Positions 3,362-63,637 of a DNA stretch of 64,000 bases are shown piece by piece. Position 1 is the first letter of the stretch, and every line of letters begins with the position of its first letter. The translations under genes were made by a program, and so were the position numbers. A model generated the notes under the pieces. It saw only the letters and a list, made by a program, of their open reading frames with translations, was not told where the DNA came from and made no database searches. Location: positions 1,559-65,558 of the forward strand of contig JBDRSF010000015.1 in assembly GCA_043825135.1 (NCBI GenBank), given 5' to 3'. This stretch comes from Candidatus Magasanikiibacteriota bacterium (GTDB lineage Bacteria; Patescibacteriota; Patescibacteriia; Magasanikbacterales; UBA922).

Positions 3362-3412
3362 CGAAAGATCCCTCGTCGCTCTTCGCTACGCTCGGACTCA
3401 CTCGGGATTGCG
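3362..3412. repeat. family C short palindromic element (GAAAGATCCCTCGTCG...CTCGGGATT), copy 1 of 3, immediately upstream of mutM
   Basis: The same ~55-nt element with conserved ends recurs at 45805-45861 (before metK) and 61593-61647 (before dnaK), each ending 10-14 nt before the start codon. Confidence 0.7.
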
Positions 3413-3421
3413 ATTGAAAAT

Positions 3422-4279
3422 ATGCCAGAACTTCCAGAAGTAGAGACAATCAGACAAGATTTGAAAAAGAAAATAGTGAATAAGAAAATCACTAATGTTT
3501 TGATCACAACAAAAGCCAGAACTAATCTATCCCGAAATAAATTTGCCAGTGAGTTGAAAGGTGAGACTGTAAAAGATGTTGATCGTGTTGGTAAATTGTT
3601 GATTTTTGTTTTACCTGATGAAAAGTATTTACTAATCCACTTAAAAATGACAGGTCAGTTAATCTATCAAAAAGGCAAAAAAATTATACCTGGTGGACAT
3701 CATGATTTATCTACTGTTAGTGATTTACCAAATAAATTTACTAGAATCACTTTTGAATTTTCAGATGGCGGAAGATTATTTTTTAACGACATGCGTCGGT
3801 TTGGTTATTTAAAAATTGTAGACAGTAAAGAGCTGGAGAAAGTTAAGTCAAAATTCGGCATAGAACCATTAGCAAAAGATTTTACAATAGATAATTTTAA
3901 AAAAGCTTTGCAGGGAAGAAAAACTAATATTAAAGCATTGCTCTTAAATCAGCAAATATTTGCCGGAATTGGTAATATTTATGCTGATGAGGCTTGTTTT
4001 GATGCGGGAATAAGACCCGATACACAAGTTAGTGAGTTATCAAGTGTACAGGTAAATAAGTTATACAAGTCAGTTCAAAAAATAATTAAAAAAGCGATTG
4101 AGATGCGGGGGACCACTTTTAATAATTATAGAGATAGCGATGGTAATCAAGGTAATTTTGTTCAACATCTTAAAGTTTATGGCCGAGCCGGGTTGAAATG
4201 TAAGCGGTGTTCAGGTATAATAGAGAAGACTAGGGTTGCAGGGCGGGGGACACATCATTGTTCGAAATGTCAAAAATAA
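3422..4279 (+). CDS. mutM: formamidopyrimidine-DNA glycosylase
   Basis: 285 aa; N-terminal MPELPEVE (catalytic Pro2/Glu3), H2TH region, C-terminal zinc finger CKRCSG...HHCSKC. Confidence 0.9.
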   Translation: MPELPEVETIRQDLKKKIVNKKITNVLITTKARTNLSRNKFASELKGETVKDVDRVGKLLIFVLPDEKYLLIHLKMTGQLIYQKGKKIIPGGHHDLSTVSDLPNKFTRITFEFSDGGRLFFNDMRRFGYLKIVDSKELEKVKSKFGIEPLAKDFTIDNFKKALQGRKTNIKALLLNQQIFAGIGNIYADEACFDAGIRPDTQVSELSSVQVNKLYKSVQKIIKKAIEMRGTTFNNYRDSDGNQGNFVQHLKVYGRAGLKCKRCSGIIEKTRVAGRGTHHCSKCQK

Positions 4280-14004: not shown

Positions 14005-15462
14005 ATGAAAAAAATATTATTTTTATTTTCAACAATCTCTATCTTTGCATTTTTTTTATTTGTTCCTAAATTATTTGCCACCACCTGTCCTTTAACTTTG
14101 CAAAAATCCTATAAATCACCAGACTCAAGTTCAGTTTATTACATTACTAAAGATTGTACTAAAAAGGCCTTTAAAAAAGCTGATGTATTTTTTACATATT
14201 TTGATTCGTGGAAAGATGTTAGTGTTGTTTCGAATGCTGTTTTATATTCTATTACTTACGATGATATTATTTTTATGCCTTGGGGGCCAAAGTATGATCC
14301 TAAGTATGGTGCTTTGACAAAAACCATTAATGACTCAAAAGTGTATTTGCTCTTGGGTGGTAAAAAATACTGGATAAATTCGGCAGATGTTTTTAATGGT
14401 CTTAATTATTCTTGGAATTGGATAGAAGATGTGGATCAAAGACTATTGGATAAATACCAAGTTGGTAGTGAAATTAATTATACTGACCACCACCCTAATT
14501 ACACAGTAATTAAATATGCTAATGATCCAAAGGTTTATAAGCTTCAACCTGATGCCCAAGATCCAACCAAACAGGTTGAAATTTACATTCAAAATGAAGC
14601 TGAATTTAATGCTTTGGGGTTTAGATGGGATAGAATTGTAACAATTGAAAATGGCAAAACTTATAAAGAGCCAGATGATATTGCTGATAATGCGCGTTCT
14701 TTCAATATGCTGGTGTTTATAGATGAAAATTCTTTCACTATTTCCGACCAGGAACTGGCTGACTATTTTGAATTTAGTGACGAATTATTTTATGACCGTA
14801 CCCAAACTCACCTCGCGCTCATTCCCAGCGGAGTCTGGCGGGTGAAGCTCGACGAAATGGAAGATATTGAAAAAACATTAATTGACACACTTGTCTCCAA
14901 TAAAGAAACTTTTAAAAATGCCAATGGTTTTGTTTTTTTTAGTACTGTCAGTCCTCTAGCCAAGATAGCCGGTGGTCATACCATGTCTTTTTATCCTGTA
15001 CACAATGGATTAGGAGATTACTGTAACACTTTTTCTTCATACGATGAAACTGATTTCTTATACGGAAGCATAATAGATTGGGGTCATAAATACGGTATCT
15101 GTGGGTATAATGAAGATGGTGAGTATGTAAGTAATACTTCTATCAATGGTCAGTGTCGTGGTCAAGCTGGAATTGAATGCGTACTTAAATATGATTATTA
15201 TATGTGCAAAAATTTAGTAGATGAATATTATGCGACTGACCCACGCTTGATGTCAGTTTCTACAATAATTCATGAAATAATGCACTTTTTTGGCGAGAAT
15301 GGTACAATGGACCACTATGGAACAGCTGACTGCCAAAATTATCCTGTACCAGAAAAGACCTTTAATTGTTCTTCAGCAGATATGTCTGGTTGTTATTTTG
15401 GAATGTGTCCTTATACCTATCTAAATTTTCAAAATTCAACAAATAAATGTGATAATAATTAA
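14005..15462 (+). CDS. secreted Cys-rich protein with HExxH zinc-metallopeptidase motif
   Basis: Signal peptide; IIHEIMHFFGENGTMDHYG (HEIMH); many C-terminal Cys; terminator hairpin GTACGTATAATAATACGTAC plus T-tract follows. Confidence 0.5.
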   Translation: MKKILFLFSTISIFAFFLFVPKLFATTCPLTLQKSYKSPDSSSVYYITKDCTKKAFKKADVFFTYFDSWKDVSVVSNAVLYSITYDDIIFMPWGPKYDPKYGALTKTINDSKVYLLLGGKKYWINSADVFNGLNYSWNWIEDVDQRLLDKYQVGSEINYTDHHPNYTVIKYANDPKVYKLQPDAQDPTKQVEIYIQNEAEFNALGFRWDRIVTIENGKTYKEPDDIADNARSFNMLVFIDENSFTISDQELADYFEFSDELFYDRTQTHLALIPSGVWRVKLDEMEDIEKTLIDTLVSNKETFKNANGFVFFSTVSPLAKIAGGHTMSFYPVHNGLGDYCNTFSSYDETDFLYGSIIDWGHKYGICGYNEDGEYVSNTSINGQCRGQAGIECVLKYDYYMCKNLVDEYYATDPRLMSVSTIIHEIMHFFGENGTMDHYGTADCQNYPVPEKTFNCSSADMSGCYFGMCPYTYLNFQNSTNKCDNN

Positions 15463-15524
15463 ATTGTAAGGAATATTTTTTAATTTAGTACGTATAATAA
15501 TACGTACTATTTTTATTTACCTAG

Positions 15525-44179: not shown

Positions 44180-45376
44180 ATGTTTGGAAGGTATAAATAT
44201 AAAAGATTAGATAATGAAGAGCCTCTGGTAAGACATTTGGGTATATTTCGTCGTAAAATGACACTATTTCAAGCAGTGGCTTTGATAATTAGTGCCACCA
44301 TTGGTGCTGGGGTTTTGGGTATTCCATATGCAGTTGCCAAAATTGGAATTTGGCCTGGCTTAGCCTATGTGGTGATTTTGGGTTGTCTTATGATGGCACT
44401 CAATCTTATGATTGGCGAAGTCATGGTCAGAACTAAGGGCAATTTACAGATTGTAGGTTTGGCTGGTAAATATCTGGGTAGATGGGGTGAAATTCTACTT
44501 AGTATTTTTGTTTATATAATGTTGTTGGGGACGTTAGTTATTTATACAATTGGTTCGGGTGAAGCTTTGTCCGCCCTTTTCGGTGGCACAGCTTTTAATT
44601 GGAGTCTTATATTTATGACAGTTGGTGCTTTTTTTATTTTTCTGGGTATGAAGAGTATAAAGGTGGTAGAATTTCTTTTGAGTATAGGAATTTTGTTTGT
44701 GATAATTTTGATAATTTTGGTAAGTGCCCCTCATGTAAATTATAGTCATTTTGCTCACTATGATTGGGCACATCTTTTGTTTCCTTATGGTGTAATCTTA
44801 TTTGCTTTTCATGCTACCACTTCAATTCCCGAAGCTCATTCTTTGTTAGGCAAAAAAAATGTTGATTTCAAATTGGCAATTTTGATAGCTGGAATAATTT
44901 CTATTATTGTTTATGCGTTATTTGCAGTTTTTGTGGTGGCCGTGACTGGACCAGAAACTACTGAAATAGCCACAATTGGTTTGGGGCAAAAAGTTGGTCG
45001 TTCTATATTTTTATTTGGTAATATTTTTGCAGTTTTGGCTATGGGTACCAGCTTTCTTATCAACGGCATGGCTCTAAAAGACTCTCTTTGTTGGGATTAC
45101 AAATTACCAAACTGGTTATCCTATAGTTTGGTTATTGGCTTGCCATTGGTAATATTTATTGCTGGTATAAGAAATTTTATTGCCGCAATTGATATTGTGG
45201 GTGGTGTTTTTGTAAGTCTTGAGATGTTAATGATATTGCTTATCTATTGGCGCGCTAAACAAAAAGGGGATTTAAGTCCTGGCAAATATAAATTGCATCA
45301 CACTGCTTTGCTCGGAGTTTTGTTATTTTTGGCTTTGGCGGTTGGTGCGGTGTATAGTGTGGTGAAGTTGTTTTAG
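44180..45376 (+). CDS. amino-acid permease (APC/aromatic amino acid transporter-like)
   Basis: 11 TM; N-terminal TLFQAVALIISATIGAGVLGIPYAVAKIG typical of Trp/Tyr permease-like transporters. Confidence 0.6.
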   Translation: MFGRYKYKRLDNEEPLVRHLGIFRRKMTLFQAVALIISATIGAGVLGIPYAVAKIGIWPGLAYVVILGCLMMALNLMIGEVMVRTKGNLQIVGLAGKYLGRWGEILLSIFVYIMLLGTLVIYTIGSGEALSALFGGTAFNWSLIFMTVGAFFIFLGMKSIKVVEFLLSIGILFVIILIILVSAPHVNYSHFAHYDWAHLLFPYGVILFAFHATTSIPEAHSLLGKKNVDFKLAILIAGIISIIVYALFAVFVVAVTGPETTEIATIGLGQKVGRSIFLFGNIFAVLAMGTSFLINGMALKDSLCWDYKLPNWLSYSLVIGLPLVIFIAGIRNFIAAIDIVGGVFVSLEMLMILLIYWRAKQKGDLSPGKYKLHHTALLGVLLFLALAVGAVYSVVKLF

Positions 45377-45496
45377 TGGCCAAGTTTATCTCGAAACTAC
45401 ACGAAGTGAGTGAGAGATCTTTCGGAGAGGTTGGTGAGGGGTTAAATCTATAAGTGGAGATAAATTGAGATAGATAGAGATAATATATATAGAATA

Positions 45497-45526
45497 TTTA
45501 TTGACAGATTTAAGGATTAATAGTAA
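45497..45526 (+). promoter_or_regulatory. promoter TTGACA-17-TAAAAT upstream of the metK leader
   Basis: TTATTGACAGATTTAAGGATTAATAGTAAAATACAAT. Confidence 0.4.
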
Positions 45527-45535
45527 AATACAATT

Positions 45536-45586
45536 ACGTATTTAAATACGTAATTAAATACGTAATACATTACGTAATAAGTTTTC
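45536..45586 (+). promoter_or_regulatory. array of four TACGTA palindromes spaced ~12 bp
   Basis: ATTACGTATTTAAATACGTAATTAAATACGTAATACATTACGTAATAAG directly downstream of the -10. Confidence 0.4.
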
Positions 45587-45594
45587 AAGAAAAT

Positions 45595-45740
45595 GGTGCT
45601 CGTTGTTGGTTGGTTTTATCGTGCTTGAGGTCGGTAGGCACGATTACTGTCCAACAACGTTCCCGAGCTTCGCTCTGCTCCGTCGGGCAAGCTCTTCTAT
45701 CTTCTTGAGACAACCGTTATTTTTAAGGTTGTTTTTTAGT
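45595..45740 (+). ncRNA. candidate structured leader RNA/riboswitch-like element upstream of metK, ending in a terminator-like hairpin
   Basis: Long hairpin GCTCGTTGTTGG...CCAACAACG-ttcc-CGAGC with inner stem ATCGTGC/GCACGAT; terminal CAACC-GTTATTTTTAA-GGTTGTTTTTT; GC-richer than flanks, no ORF >11 codons; no canonical S-box seen. Confidence 0.3.
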
Positions 45741-45804
45741 ATATTAATTTACTAGAAACAACTCAGTAGTCCTGCGACTACAATTACTAAATTTTAATTT
45801 TTAA

Positions 45805-45861
45805 GAAAGATCCCTCGTCGTCCAGATTTTTTGCGAAAAAAATCTTTCCTCGCTCGGGATT
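45805..45861. repeat. family C element, copy 2, immediately upstream of metK
   Basis: GAAAGATCCCTCGTCG-TCCAGATTTTTTGCGAAAAAAATCTTTCC-TCGCTCGGGATT, ends 12 nt before the ATG. Confidence 0.7.
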
Positions 45862-45872
45862 AACCAAACCAT

Positions 45873-47054
45873 ATGGAAAAACATTATTTTACCTCAGAAT
45901 CAGTTACCGAAGGACATCCGGACAAAATTTGTGATCAAATCTCTGATGGAGTTTTGGATGCAGTTTTAACAGATGATCCTGATGGGGCATGCTGTTGTGA
46001 GGTGTTTACTACGACTGGACTAGTCGTAGTTGGTGGAGAAATATCTACAAAAACTTATGTAGATATTCCAAAAATAGTTAGACAAACTTTGCAAGAAATT
46101 GGCTATACAGATGCTGATTATGGTATTGATTATAAATCTTGTGGTGTTATGGTTGCAGTTGATGAACAAAGTCAAGATATTGCCCAGGGTGAAAAAGAAG
46201 ATGCTGGTCATCCTCACCAAGCTCAAGGGGCAGGGGATCAGGGAATGATGTTTGGATTTGCTTGCAAAGAAACTCCAGAGTTGATGCCACTGCCAATTAT
46301 GTTGGCCCATGGTCTGACTCGCAAATTGGCAGAAGTTAGAAAAAATAAAACTTTAGGTTATTTACGTCCTGATGGCAAATCACAGGTTACAGTTGAATAT
46401 ATTGATGGAAAACCCGTTAGGGCTGATGCGGTTGTAATTGCTGCTCAACATAATCCAGAGATTGAATTATCACAATTGCGTGAAGATATTTTACGCGAAG
46501 TTATCAAGCCAGTTTGTGGGGAATATTTAGATGAGAATACCAAATTTTATATCAATGAAACTGGAAGATTCGTCGTTGGTGGTCCACAGGGAGACACTGG
46601 TGTGACTGGCAGGAAAATCATTGTAGATACTTATGGTGGAAAAGGCAGACATGGTGGCGGAGCATTTTCTGGCAAAGTACCAAACAAGCAAGACAGATCT
46701 GGCGCCTACATGGCACGTTATATTGCAAAAAATATTGTAGCAGCTGATTTGGCAGACGAGTGCGAAGTTCAATTGTCCTATGCCATCGGTTATCCCGAAC
46801 CAACCAGTGTTTTAGTAGATACTTTTGGAGCTGGAAAAGTTGATAGTGAAAAATTAACCAAAGCAGTTAGAGAGGTATTTGATCTCACTCCAGCTGGTAT
46901 TATTAAAACTCTTGATTTAAAGCGTCCTATTTATAAAGCTACTGCTTCTTACGGACATTTTGGTCGTGAAGTGGTTGGTTCAGATGTTGGCGAATTGTTT
47001 ACATGGGAGAAGATTGATAAGGTTGAGGATCTGAAAAGCAGATTAAGTATGTAG
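45873..47054 (+). CDS. metK: S-adenosylmethionine synthetase
   Basis: [38 protein letters not shown] motifs; terminator 47079-47107 follows. Confidence 0.93.
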
Positions 47055-47078
47055 GTAAAATAAGCATATTAAGTAACA

Positions 47079-47107
47079 AAAAATCCACCGAATTGGTGGA
47101 TTTTTTA
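47079..47107 (+). terminator. rho-independent terminator after metK
   Basis: AAAAAATCCACCGAATTGGTGGATTTTTTAAT. Confidence 0.65.
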
Positions 47108-47270
47108 ATATTCTCTATTACAAATTTTTAGTAACAAAGAAAGGGGGGGGTGGAACGGCGTCGGGTGTAAATCGACGCCGTCCCATAAAGCGGAAAGGAG
47201 AGGTGAACCCACCTAGATCACTTCGGATGAAGTGGCGTTTGGATGGTAAGTCCTCTCCTGGAGGGACACT

Positions 47271-47540
47271 CTAGGGGATATGGACTCCCATCCATCCCTG
47301 GGTTTTTGGATCCCAGGTGTAGGCATCCACCTCCTTGTGGAGGTTACGCTTTTGACGGCTTGACCACCAGGAGATGATGCTTACGGTGGTGAAGAGACCA
47401 CCGAGAGCTATTGAAACGAACCCTAGCGTTCTAGGAATCGCATTCTCACCCTCTGTCATCTCTGGATAGAGGATCCAGAGCGTCGCGCCTGCAACCACCA
47501 ACAGGGTGACCACGATGATGGTCAGAAAAAACTTCTTCAT
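47271..47540 (-). CDS. small 2-TM membrane protein encoded in a GC-rich islet (possible horizontal acquisition)
   Basis: 89 aa; strong SD GAAGGAGAGGGACAG-ATG; region ~47140-47560 is much GC-richer than surroundings. Confidence 0.4.
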   Translation of the reverse strand: MKKFFLTIIVVTLLVVAGATLWILYPEMTEGENAIPRTLGFVSIALGGLFTTVSIISWWSSRQKRNLHKEVDAYTWDPKTQGWMGVHIP

Positions 47541-47682
47541 CTGTCCCTCTCCTTCAATTTATGCCCAAAATTGGGCAGTTTTTATTAAAGAGCAATAATA
47601 TATTATAGCATAATTTTACCATTTTGTCAAGGGGGTGTCCAGAATCTGACTTTTTTAGGGTTTTCTGGTATAATATAAGTAT

Positions 47683-48690
47683 ATGATAAAACAAAAACAA
47701 ACAATCGCCGTTCTCGGCGCGGGTAACATGGGCACAGCTGTTGCTCAAGTTTTGGCCGATAATGGTCATGAGGTTCGGATTTGGAATTGGGAGGGGGAGC
47801 ATTTACCATTAAAACAAATTGAGAAATATGGCGAGAATAAAAAATATTTACCAAGAGTAAAACTTTCAAAAAATATTATTCCCAAATTTGAATTAAAAGA
47901 AGCTTTGAGTGAGGCAGAAATAGTATTTTTTGTAGTGCCATCTGGTGCTATGGAGCATACTATATCTTTTGCTTCTCGTAGTATAGAACACAAGACTATT
48001 TTGGTTGACGTATCAAAAGGTGTAGAACCGCAGTCATTACGTCTTATTCCACATATCATAATAAAGCACGTACGACCGGAGCTAAGAAAAAATGTAGTAA
48101 CAATTTCCGGTCCGGCAGTAGCGGGACAGATGGTTAAAAAACAATTTACTGCCATGAACATTGCGTCAAAAAATAAAAAGGCGATAAAAAAAGTAGTGGA
48201 AGCAATGAATAATGAATATATAAAACTTATTCCAACTAATGATGTAATTGGTGTAGAAATTGGTGGGTCATTTAAAAATGTTTACGCTATCGTGGTGGGT
48301 ATGTGTGACGGAATGGGTTATGGTCTTAATACCAAGGCTGCGCTTCTTACCAAATCATTGGAAGAAATTGCTAATTTAATTCAAGCAATGGGAGGAAGAA
48401 AGCATACTGCCTATGAATTGGCCGGACTTGGTGATTTGATTGGGACAGCACTTTGTCCAGAAAGTCGTAATCGGACTTTGGGTGAATATTTGGGCAAGGG
48501 GATGAAGGGTCCTCAGGCACAAAAAAAGATGAGACAAACAGTAGAAGGGGTATCTGCTACGCTTTGTTTACTTAAATTGGCTAGAAAACATAAAGTTAGG
48601 GTCCCGCTAGCTGAGATGGTAAATGAGTGTTTATCAACCAAAGGCGACCCAAGGAAGATATTTCACAATTTTTTGTTAAAGGGTTGGTAA
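47683..48690 (+). CDS. gpsA: NAD(P)H-dependent glycerol-3-phosphate dehydrogenase
   Basis: N-terminal IAVLGAGNMGTAVAQVLA Rossmann fold; GpsA-like central and C-terminal regions. Confidence 0.8.
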   Translation: MIKQKQTIAVLGAGNMGTAVAQVLADNGHEVRIWNWEGEHLPLKQIEKYGENKKYLPRVKLSKNIIPKFELKEALSEAEIVFFVVPSGAMEHTISFASRSIEHKTILVDVSKGVEPQSLRLIPHIIIKHVRPELRKNVVTISGPAVAGQMVKKQFTAMNIASKNKKAIKKVVEAMNNEYIKLIPTNDVIGVEIGGSFKNVYAIVVGMCDGMGYGLNTKAALLTKSLEEIANLIQAMGGRKHTAYELAGLGDLIGTALCPESRNRTLGEYLGKGMKGPQAQKKMRQTVEGVSATLCLLKLARKHKVRVPLAEMVNECLSTKGDPRKIFHNFLLKGW

Positions 48691-61592: not shown

Positions 61593-61647
61593 GAAAGATC
61601 CCTCGTCGTTCACCTGCGCTCACGCTTGGTGACCTCGCTCGGGATTA
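61593..61647. repeat. family C element, copy 3, immediately upstream of dnaK
   Basis: GAAAGATCCCTCGTCG-TTCACCTGCGCTCACGCTTGGTGACCTCG-CTCGGGATT ends 13 nt before the ATG. Confidence 0.7.
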
Positions 61648-61660
61648 ACGAAAAAATTCT

Positions 61661-63637
61661 ATGTCAAAAATATTAGGAATAGACTTGGGGACAACTAATT
61701 CATGTATGGCTATCACCGAGGGTGGTCAGCCAAAAGTGCTTGAAAATAAAGAGGGGAATAGAACTACTCCGTCTGTAATTGCAATGTCAAAGACAGGGGA
61801 ACGTCTGGTAGGTCAGCTGGCCAAGCGTCAAGCTGTTACTAATCCGACAAATACACTTCATTCAATCAAACGTCTAATCGGACGCCGTTATGAGGATGCC
61901 GTGGTACAAGAAATGAAAAAACATGCTCCATTTGAAATTTTGAAAGATGGTGATCGTATCAAAATTAAAATGCAAGACAAGGAGTATGCTTTGCCAGAAA
62001 TCTCTGCTATGGTTTTGCAGAAATTAAAAGCTGACGCGGAAGAAAAAATTGGTGAAAAAATTGAAGAAGCTGTGATCACTGTTCCAGCCTATTTTGATGA
62101 TGCTCAACGCCAAGCTACAAAAGCTGCCGGTGAAATTGCAGGTTTGAAAGTGAGTCGTATTATTAACGAGCCAACTGCAGCCGCTTTTGCTTATGGATTT
62201 GATAAAGCAAAAGATCAACAAGTGGCTGTTTATGATCTTGGTGGTGGTACTTTTGATATCTCTATTTTAGATATTTCACATGATGGTGATCAATCTACTG
62301 TAGAAGTAAAATCTACTAATGGTGATACCCATCTTGGTGGTGATGACTTTGATCAAAAGATTATTGAATGGATTTTGGATGAATTTAAGAAAGTAGAAGG
62401 AATGGATTTAAGCAAAGACCCATTATCTCTACAACGCGTTAAGGATGCCGCTGAGAAGGCCAAAATTGAGCTTTCTAGCACTCCTGAGAGTGAAATCAAT
62501 GAACCATTCATTACTTCTGGTGCCGAGGGTCCAAAGCACTTAAATATGAAATTAACTCGCGCCAAATTAGAAGAGCTTGTAGGTGAGTTAGTAGAAAAGA
62601 CAATGGTTCCAGTTAAAAAAGCTTTAGACGACGCTGGATTCAAAAAAGAAGATATTGAAGAAGTTATTTTAGTTGGTGGTATGACTCGTATGCCTTTGGT
62701 ACAAAAAAAGGTAGAAGAATTTTTTGGCAAGAAACCTCATGTGGGAGTAAATCCAGATGAAGTTGTTGCTATAGGTGCTGCTATTCAAGCTGGGCAACTT
62801 CAAGGTGATCTTGGTAAAGATATTTTGCTTTTAGATGTTACACCTTTGTCACTTGGACTTGAAACTTTAGGCGGTGTTTCTACAAAATTAATTGAACGCA
62901 ACACTACAATTCCAACAAGCAAATCACAAGTATTTTCAACTGCTGCTGACAACCAGCCCAGTGTTGAAATCCATGTGCTTCAAGGTGAGCGTGAAATGGC
63001 AACTGACAATAAATCTCTTGGTCGTTTCATGTTGGATGGTATTCCACCAGCTCCACGTGGTGTGCCACAAGTAGAAGTGACTTTTGATATTGATGCCAAT
63101 GGTATTGTAAGTGTAAAAGCCAAAGATAAGGCAACTGGCAAAGAACAATCAATTCGTATTGAAGCATCTTCAGGATTATCAGATGAGGAAATTGAAAAAA
63201 TGAAAAAAGATGGTGAAGCTCATGCTGAAGAAGATAAGAAAAAACGCGAGATGATTGATATCAAGAATACCGCGGATACTATGATTTATACTACAGAAAA
63301 AATGATGAAAGATGTGGAAGAAAAAAAGATTGAAGTTACTGATGAAGAAAAAAAGAAAGTAGAAGAAGGTGTAGAAGCCTTGAAAAAAGCTTTAAAAGGG
63401 AGTGATGACCCTTCGGCAGACTCAGGGCAAGCTATAGAGGAAATCAAAAAGGTTTCTGAAGAATTATCAACCGCAGCTCAAGCAATTGGTATGAAAATGT
63501 ATGCTACAGAGCAGAAGGAAACAAGTGACAAGAAACAAGATACAAATAATCCTGATGCAGAAGCTGGTGAAGCAAAAAAGAAAGACGAAGGTGAAGCAGT
63601 AGAGGGTGAAGTGGTTGATGAGGAAGAGAAAAAATAA
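61661..63637 (+). CDS. dnaK: molecular chaperone DnaK (Hsp70)
   Basis: [40 protein letters not shown] signatures; acidic C-terminal tail; terminator 63657-63690. Confidence 0.95.

Follow-up and report, generated by a model that had tools for sequence, protein, structure and literature searches.

A metK-specific riboswitch candidate with a putative ON-type platform in bacteria of the Candidate Phyla Radiation

Upstream of metK in the 64-kb window (the whole stretch of DNA analysed here) lies a conserved, structured RNA that matches no catalogued family and looks like a new riboswitch class. Homologues of this RNA are associated exclusively with metK, their helices covary, and their closing helix P1 overlaps a following intrinsic terminator in most leaders. 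With moderate confidence, we interpret the element as an uncatalogued, metK-specific riboswitch candidate of Candidate Phyla Radiation (CPR) bacteria that would use an ON-type expression platform, accompanied in some lineages by an operator-like array. A sequence-only reading of the region had raised a novel SAM-responsive attenuator as a possibility; the comparative data, which show a conserved, covarying, metK-specific RNA, support a novel attenuator, whereas responsiveness to SAM is unsupported as stated, because the ON architecture does not fit SAM feedback.

The metK leader and its conserved RNA

The regulated gene, metK (S-adenosylmethionine synthetase, 45873–47054, + strand), is recognised by the Pfam domains PF00438, PF02772 and PF02773. 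Its product matches, at 100% identity, a protein deposited under the name Candidatus Magasanikbacteria methionine adenosyltransferase, its nearest relatives all come from Patescibacteria/CPR, and a strong terminator of its own follows downstream (47078–47106). Upstream, a sigma-70-type promoter (45501–45529, + strand) combines a −35 hexamer TTGACA (45501–45506) with a −10 hexamer TAAAAT (45524–45529) across a 17-nt spacer, within the 16–18 nt used to recognise such sites. At 11 of 12 consensus positions it is the top-scoring site of the region, with its activity predicted from sequence, and it bears out the plausible promoter suggested earlier. A TTGACA-type promoter stands at the equivalent place in nearly all homologous leaders; where no array intervenes, P1 starts ~7 nt after the −10 box, and the transcript therefore begins with the aptamer.

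The aptamer-like domain comprises 128 conserved nucleotides (45583–45710, + strand, as are all of its helices) and is built overall as a long irregular stem (P1-P1b-P2a-P2b) that may also bear a side hairpin, P3. The closing helix P1 (45583–45591 / 45702–45710) covaries freely in its outer half and is conserved in sequence in its inner half (AAGAA/UUCUU). A single mismatch separates it from P1b (AUGG/CUAU, or CCAU; 45593–45596 / 45697–45700); a G-C pair replaces this mismatch in L127, L091 and L118, and P1 runs into P1b without a break in L127. The pair G45598-C45662 opens P2, in which the 9-bp helix P2a (45601–45609 / 45651–45659) shows clean covariation at two positions (C-G/A-U/U-A and U-A/C-G). 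Further along come the GGU/ACU pairing (45612–45614 / 45646–45648), within an internal loop whose GGU ... UAUC and GAUUACU are invariant, and P2b (45618–45624 / 45638–45644), where four pairs covary and the tip is variable. P3 (45665–45694) is a variable hairpin, unrelated in sequence and length among members and missing from six of them. A pseudoknot between the P2b loop (GAUAG) and CUAUC was considered as a core feature and rejected on reading the aligned sequences; the GGUCGAUAGG tip is absent from many members (L001, L089, L091, L095, L097 and L098), which counts against such a pairing.

Several measures agree on this fold. The GC-enriched, folded segment of the sequence-only reading is real: G+C reaches 0.53 at 45600–45699, compared with ~0.30–0.40 in most neighbouring coding sequence and 0.20–0.23 just upstream, and folding z-scores against shuffled controls are −5.0 for 45575–45740 and −7.5 for 45527–45872. 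In alignment A1, 94.0% of the cells are standard pairs, against 38–55% when the partners are slid, and 15 pairs carry compensatory changes, values attained by none of 500 shuffles. The model-guided alignment A3 (35 distinct rows) gives 93.9% pairing and 16 compensatory pairs, and RNAfold independently returns the same architecture in 13 homologues. Several P2a and P1b pairs are invariant and hence uninformative on structure, for or against. The conserved, covarying aptamer structure by which riboswitches are recognised is present here.

Around 40 nucleotides are invariant, mostly in inner P1 and P1b (AUGGUG ... CUAUC), the junction and the P2 internal loop (GGU ... UAUC / GAUUACU). This apparent conservation is inflated by the search itself, because the pattern that retrieved 34 of the sequences has 26 fixed nucleotides; the same ~40 positions are invariant in nine sequences found without the pattern. 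Two open reading frames overlap the RNA (45603–45755, + strand, and 45585–45713, − strand) and were considered as leader peptides. They were ruled out as non-coding, since the homologues show indels of any length together with compensatory changes in the stems.

The distribution of the element was traced outwards from metK. In the DNA upstream of close MetK homologues, representing seven independent loci with MetK 79–92% identical, a recognisably homologous element was present in all seven. A degenerate pattern derived from those loci and run over a metagenome collection yielded 34 more; in each of the 41 loci obtained by homology or by the pattern, metK follows the element on the same strand. 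These 41 loci contain 32 distinct aptamer sequences, which make up alignment A1 and from which covariance model R1 was built. The model has one match in the 64-kb window (45580–45713, 105.6 bits) and adds two pattern-independent metK leaders, L129 and L127, the latter with a minimal 89-nt form, for a total of 43 metK-leader loci in Magasanikbacteria/Parcubacteria-type (CPR) bacteria. Among 80 metK loci listed from other phyla it matches only L001, the negatives including one Peribacteria and one Peregrinibacteria locus; it also finds no element in the leaders of L126, which has a Vogelbacteria-type MetK, and L128, whose MetK is 74% identical. Since the model matches L127, L129 and L001 and misses the other loci from other phyla as well as L126 and L128, the family appears narrow, covering roughly Magasanikbacteria and near relatives. 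Outside metK leaders the motif was found neither in the window nor in the 80 listed loci from other phyla, and it was absent from the viral sequences scanned. As is usual for riboswitches, the element thus keeps to the 5′ leaders of genes with related function.

Known RNA families do not account for it. With Rfam 15 at gathering thresholds, the whole window gives four tRNAs only and no SAM riboswitch, and at E ≤ 10 no SAM, SAH or T-box model is found on the 601 nt from 45350 to 45950, so that the absence of a canonical SAM class noted from the sequence alone held up. At E ≤ 5, ten homologous loci likewise return no known family. The permissive matches are chance ones only, such as Plasmid_RNAIII and miRNA models on AT-rich palindromes; they include no member of the SAM-I / SAM-IV / SAM-I-IV clan (CL00012), none of the SAM-II, SAM-V, SAM-III (SMK box), SAM-VI, SAM/SAH and SAH models, and no T-box leader (RF00230). 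As a positive control, the same search detects SAM-I upstream of metK in 16 Firmicutes loci, drawn from the listed metK loci of other phyla that also served as negatives for the covariance model. A literature search found no publication on a metK riboswitch from CPR bacteria or on a natural riboswitch for methionine, and no riboswitch report for these uncultured, reduced-genome bacteria.

The closest parallel in layout is SAM-I (S-box, RF00162), which likewise has a structured leader between promoter and metK, a multi-helix aptamer closed by a P1 helix, an intrinsic terminator after the aptamer and control at the level of transcription attenuation. The fold is different, with a four-way junction and a K-turn in SAM-I and, here, a long irregular stem whose side hairpin is optional, and so is the platform, in which SAM-I has a separate antiterminator and the present RNA a P1 strand common to the terminator. 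SAH and SAM/SAH riboswitches are small pseudoknots of roughly 45–70 nt, compared with a stem-junction domain of 90–130 nt here. They resemble the element in regulating the methyl cycle, and neither model (RF01057, RF01727) matches here at permissive E-values. The SAH riboswitch is an ON switch, and the SAM/SAH riboswitch occurs upstream of metK (PMC6411933, PMC7367207).

A terminator that shares a strand with P1

Immediately after the aptamer, the terminator-like hairpin with a U-tract that had been read from the sequence proves to be an intrinsic terminator with a stable hairpin (GAGACAACC...GGUUGUUUU, 45707–45735) followed by a U-run ending at 45737 (45707–45737, + strand); a simple terminator scan missed it because its stem has few G-C pairs. 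Its first four nucleotides, GAGA (45707–45710), double as the outer 3′ strand of P1. The full terminator and full P1 are mutually exclusive, since the 5′ arm of the former is the outer 3′ strand of the latter, and in the window the two folds are close in energy, at −51.5 kcal/mol for full P1 without the terminator and −55.2 kcal/mol for the full terminator.

The same arrangement recurs across the family. A clear terminator directly adjoins P1 in 26 of 34 distinct leaders, and each leader was folded twice, once with the terminator 3′ arm blocked and once with the terminator enforced. Full P1 and full terminator share 4–9 nt in 23 of the 26 terminator-bearing leaders, and the two folds are nearly isoenergetic, differing by no more than ~4 kcal/mol. 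The shared string varies by locus (GAGA in the window, and GAAC, AAAACGC, GAGGC, GACGA and others elsewhere) and at each locus is complementary to both the P1 5′ strand and the terminator 3′ arm. That the strings differ and stay complementary to both partners indicates that both pairings are under selection. The leader therefore contains an expression platform with mutually exclusive structures, a further feature by which riboswitches are recognised.

For calibration, the same double-fold procedure was applied to 12 SAM-I metK leaders from Firmicutes, which are known OFF switches. Strand sharing was seen in one; the other 11 showed zero sharing and have a separate antiterminator instead. The contrast between 23/26 here and 1/12 in OFF-type SAM-I leaders suggests that P1 itself is the antiterminator, in an ON-type design. 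By analogy, whatever stabilises the conserved core and P1 would promote read-through into metK. In ON-type riboswitches the 3′ strand of the aptamer doubles as the 5′ arm of the terminator, and ligand binding blocks termination. The adenine pbuE, fluoride crcB, ZTP, guanidine-I and Mn2+ yybP-ykoY riboswitches have a like platform, with competition between a closing helix or pseudoknot and the terminator; their aptamers are unrelated, they regulate other genes, and the terminator here invades the outer 4–9 nt of P1 and not the core. It counts against this reading that the terminator has to invade just the outer stretch of P1, which is not conserved; that a ligand bound in the core would protect outer P1 is argued from folding energies.

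On the reading that we favour, transcription would start at the consensus promoter and the nascent RNA would fold into the long irregular stem (P1-P1b-P2a-P2b) with optional P3. A ligand would lock the conserved core and so stabilise full P1, which as antiterminator would let RNA polymerase read into metK; without ligand, the terminator would prevail. An ON switch on metK is unexpected, since, as far as we know, every riboswitch class associated with metK (SAM-I to SAM-VI and SAM/SAH) senses SAM or SAM/SAH and switches off.

The mechanism is not uniform across the family, as eight leaders have the aptamer without a clear terminator (e.g., L089, L100, L110 and L096). Translational control is suggested for this subgroup (L089, L100, L110, L096) by L100, where the metK start codon can lie inside a small hairpin. 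Most terminator stems keep RACAAC...GUUGUU (45711–45733 in the window), mimicking P2a (GUUGUUGG/CCAACAAC). An antiterminator formed between P2a and the terminator (AACAAC/GUUGUU) was rejected as a general mechanism, because the terminators of L001, L127 and L129 are unrelated, without this mimicry, and the terminator ignores the U-A to C-G covariation of P2a.

The strongest alternative, which we judge possible but doubtful, is a new SAM-sensing OFF riboswitch in which SAM binding to the core would lead to termination, with the P1/terminator overlap either incidental or belonging to a bound fold that differs from ours. Such a switch would suit a motif that is exclusive to metK and that is followed by a terminator in most leaders, and it would conform to the SAM-sensing, repressing habit of the metK classes that we know of. 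It is opposed by the platform, which leaves no space for a separate antiterminator and conserves none, and in which 23 of 26 leaders use one and the same strand for the terminator 5′ arm and the 3′ side of P1, a sharing that 11 of 12 genuine SAM-I OFF leaders lack; nor is there detectable likeness to any SAM family model.

Considerably less probable, in our view, is a protein- or tRNA-dependent attenuator, in which an RNA-binding protein, MetK itself or a tRNA would stabilise or disrupt P1. The structural and platform evidence would be the same as for a ligand-dependent switch, and the conserved purine-rich inner P1, along with the UGGU within AUGGUG, could be a contact for a macromolecule; from a reading of the sequence, this UGGU is complementary to the ACCA 3′ end of tRNA. 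However, ~40 invariant loop and junction nucleotides in a 90–130-nt domain are typical of metabolite aptamers, and no conserved neighbouring gene for an RNA-binding protein was seen in the loci viewed. T-box or tRNA sensing in particular was rejected: no T-box model matches, a transcript that begins at P1 leaves no upstream Stem I, and induction of metK by uncharged tRNA-Met would make no physiological sense.

The TACGTA array and other elements of the locus

In the window, an array of four (T)TACGTA(A) palindromes (45532–45578, + strand) is inserted between the transcription start and the aptamer. The TACGTA copies start at 45535, 45547, 45559 and 45571, confirming the ~12-bp phase of the sequence-only reading as an exact 12-bp one (45535–45576), and the array begins 5 nt after the −10 box TAAAAT. 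TACGTA-N6-TACGTA is expected 0.08 times per window and observed four times, three of them in the metK array. The same 5-nt register after TAAAAT is found in L085 (five copies), L093 (four), L114 (four) and L094 (two); altogether the carriers (the window, L085/L115, L093, L094/L107 and L114) have 2–5 TTACGTAA palindromes at a 12-bp period, with conserved cores and varying spacers. Such arrays occur only at metK among all fetched loci. They are present in 5 of ~34 leaders and absent from L081, L088, L117 and all others, and since L081, the closest relative, lacks it, the array is dispensable. The operator-like array of the sequence-only reading is therefore real, with a fixed register in four other leaders, but it is a lineage-specific insert and not part of the conserved element.

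Because it covers the start site and resembles tandem-box operators such as the MetJ met boxes, the array is possibly an operator for a repressor overlapping the start site. Under the riboswitch reading, it would form a second, lineage-specific layer of control in the window and four relatives. In Gammaproteobacteria, MetJ met boxes are tandem 8-bp AGACGTCT repeats in 2–5 copies, used at metK too, with SAM as corepressor. The likeness extends to 2–5 tandem 8-bp palindromes with a central ACGT, placed over the transcription start in the promoter of a methionine/SAM gene. Met boxes are contiguous 8-bp AGACGTCT units, whereas the array here consists of TTACGTAA units at a 12-bp period with 4-bp spacers, and contiguous tandem 8-bp AGACGTCT-like boxes were not found in it. 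A literature search on a TTACGTAA operator found nothing relevant. Adjacent array units could also, as modelled, form 5′ RNA hairpins, or the array could be a slippage-expanded repeat or reflect shared ancestry without function; the L093 array has three identical 12-mers, which bears on slippage.

A single viral match to a TTACGTAA array turned out to be a coding (GYVT)n repeat and was discarded. The only other TACGTA-N6-TACGTA in the window (15489–15506) forms an AU-rich hairpin with a T-run behind it; the ORF at 14005–15462 stops 27 nt ahead of it, and a TTGACT −35 box follows ~12 nt further on. A factor acting on the metK array could bind here too; as a regulon member the site was rejected, since it looks like a terminator hairpin with a different geometry and yields no regulon.

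Least probable of all, we consider, is that a DNA-binding repressor on the TACGTA array is the main regulator, leaving the RNA as a mere stabiliser or processing element or as an independent small RNA. In five leaders the array does overlap the predicted start site, always 5 nt after TAAAAT, its core is conserved while its spacers vary, and promoter and terminator together could give a discrete ~200-nt transcript. Set against this, ~29 of 34 distinct leaders lack the array, including that of the closest relative L081, and the RNA is always present. A small RNA is possible as the terminated product; however, an RNA that invariably stands directly ahead of metK and on its strand is more likely to be a cis element, and a P1/terminator competition kept by three-way covariation would be needless in a mere stabiliser.

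Between the terminator and metK lie a small hairpin, UAGUCCUGCGACUA (45766–45781, + strand), which is present in L081 too, and, just before the metK start codon, the "family C" palindromic repeat (45807–45864, + strand). The latter, already remarked on in the sequence-only reading, is a genuine repeat with the form AAGATCCCTCGTCG ... CTCGCTCGGGATTAAC and a variable centre. Further copies precede fpg/mutM (3365–3420; gene at 3422–4279) and dnaK (61595–61649; gene at 61661–63637), so that the repeat stands 10–20 nt ahead of the fpg/mutM, dnaK and metK starts; another copy is at 38230–38245 on the − strand. L081 has family C as well, and L105 a shortened version of it. As copies precede fpg and dnaK too, it is a generic repeat outside metK control and could be a REP-like or 5′-UTR element of these genomes. 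In L081, L085, L093, L094 and L117, a different palindromic insert of ~70 nt (ATGTAACTCAAAGC...GAGTTACAT), absent from the window, lies between leader terminator and metK, a spacer that seems especially prone to small insertions.

Some features further from the leader are recorded here. Between the metK terminator and gpsA (47683–48690), positions 47140–47550 have a G+C of 0.54 against a background of ~0.35 and are weakly alignable with the equivalent interval in L085 and L088; the minus-strand ORFs there (89 and 82 aa) have no Pfam match, and no Rfam family was found in the interval. On the other side, a tRNA-Val gene (43037–43113) is directly followed by a gene for a Bro-N domain protein (43212–44075), a pair that may be the remnant of an integrated mobile element or phage. 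An amino-acid permease gene (Trp_Tyr_perm/Aa_trans, 44180–45376) sits just 5′ of the metK leader, and this neighbour is also kept in L081, L088, L091 and L127.

Candidate ligands and significance

Since the RNA is associated exclusively with metK, its signal should belong to methionine/SAM metabolism, with methionine, SAH and SAM as candidates. No operon partner that could serve as a ligand clue is conserved across the loci, where metK is mostly monocistronic. The ON logic points to a substrate-supply or demand signal, methionine or SAH, over SAM, which is the obvious prior ligand and yet arguably disfavoured by its poor fit to the platform. Methionine would act as a substrate feed-forward signal, which is consistent with the conserved upstream permease; this permease may be a methionine importer and so bear on the choice of ligand, and methionine is probably scavenged by these CPR bacteria. 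The ON logic also suits SAH, which would act as a demand signal. A bolder proposal, which we regard as unlikely, is that the ligand lies outside the known natural riboswitch classes and is, most attractively, free methionine, so that metK would be switched on with imported substrate and the array would add DNA-level control in one sublineage.

Leaders of metK have already been the source of many distinct SAM and SAM/SAH riboswitch classes. If our interpretation is right, the RNA described here would be a further, structurally unrelated metK class, confined to the Candidate Phyla Radiation, and would extend this record of convergent evolution. The covariance model can also serve to mark metK regulation when Patescibacteria metagenomes are annotated. 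Should the ON platform hold, either metK is induced by a methionine or SAH signal in these bacteria, or SAM binding is coupled to termination in an unusual way; and if methionine is the signal, it would be a new riboswitch ligand.
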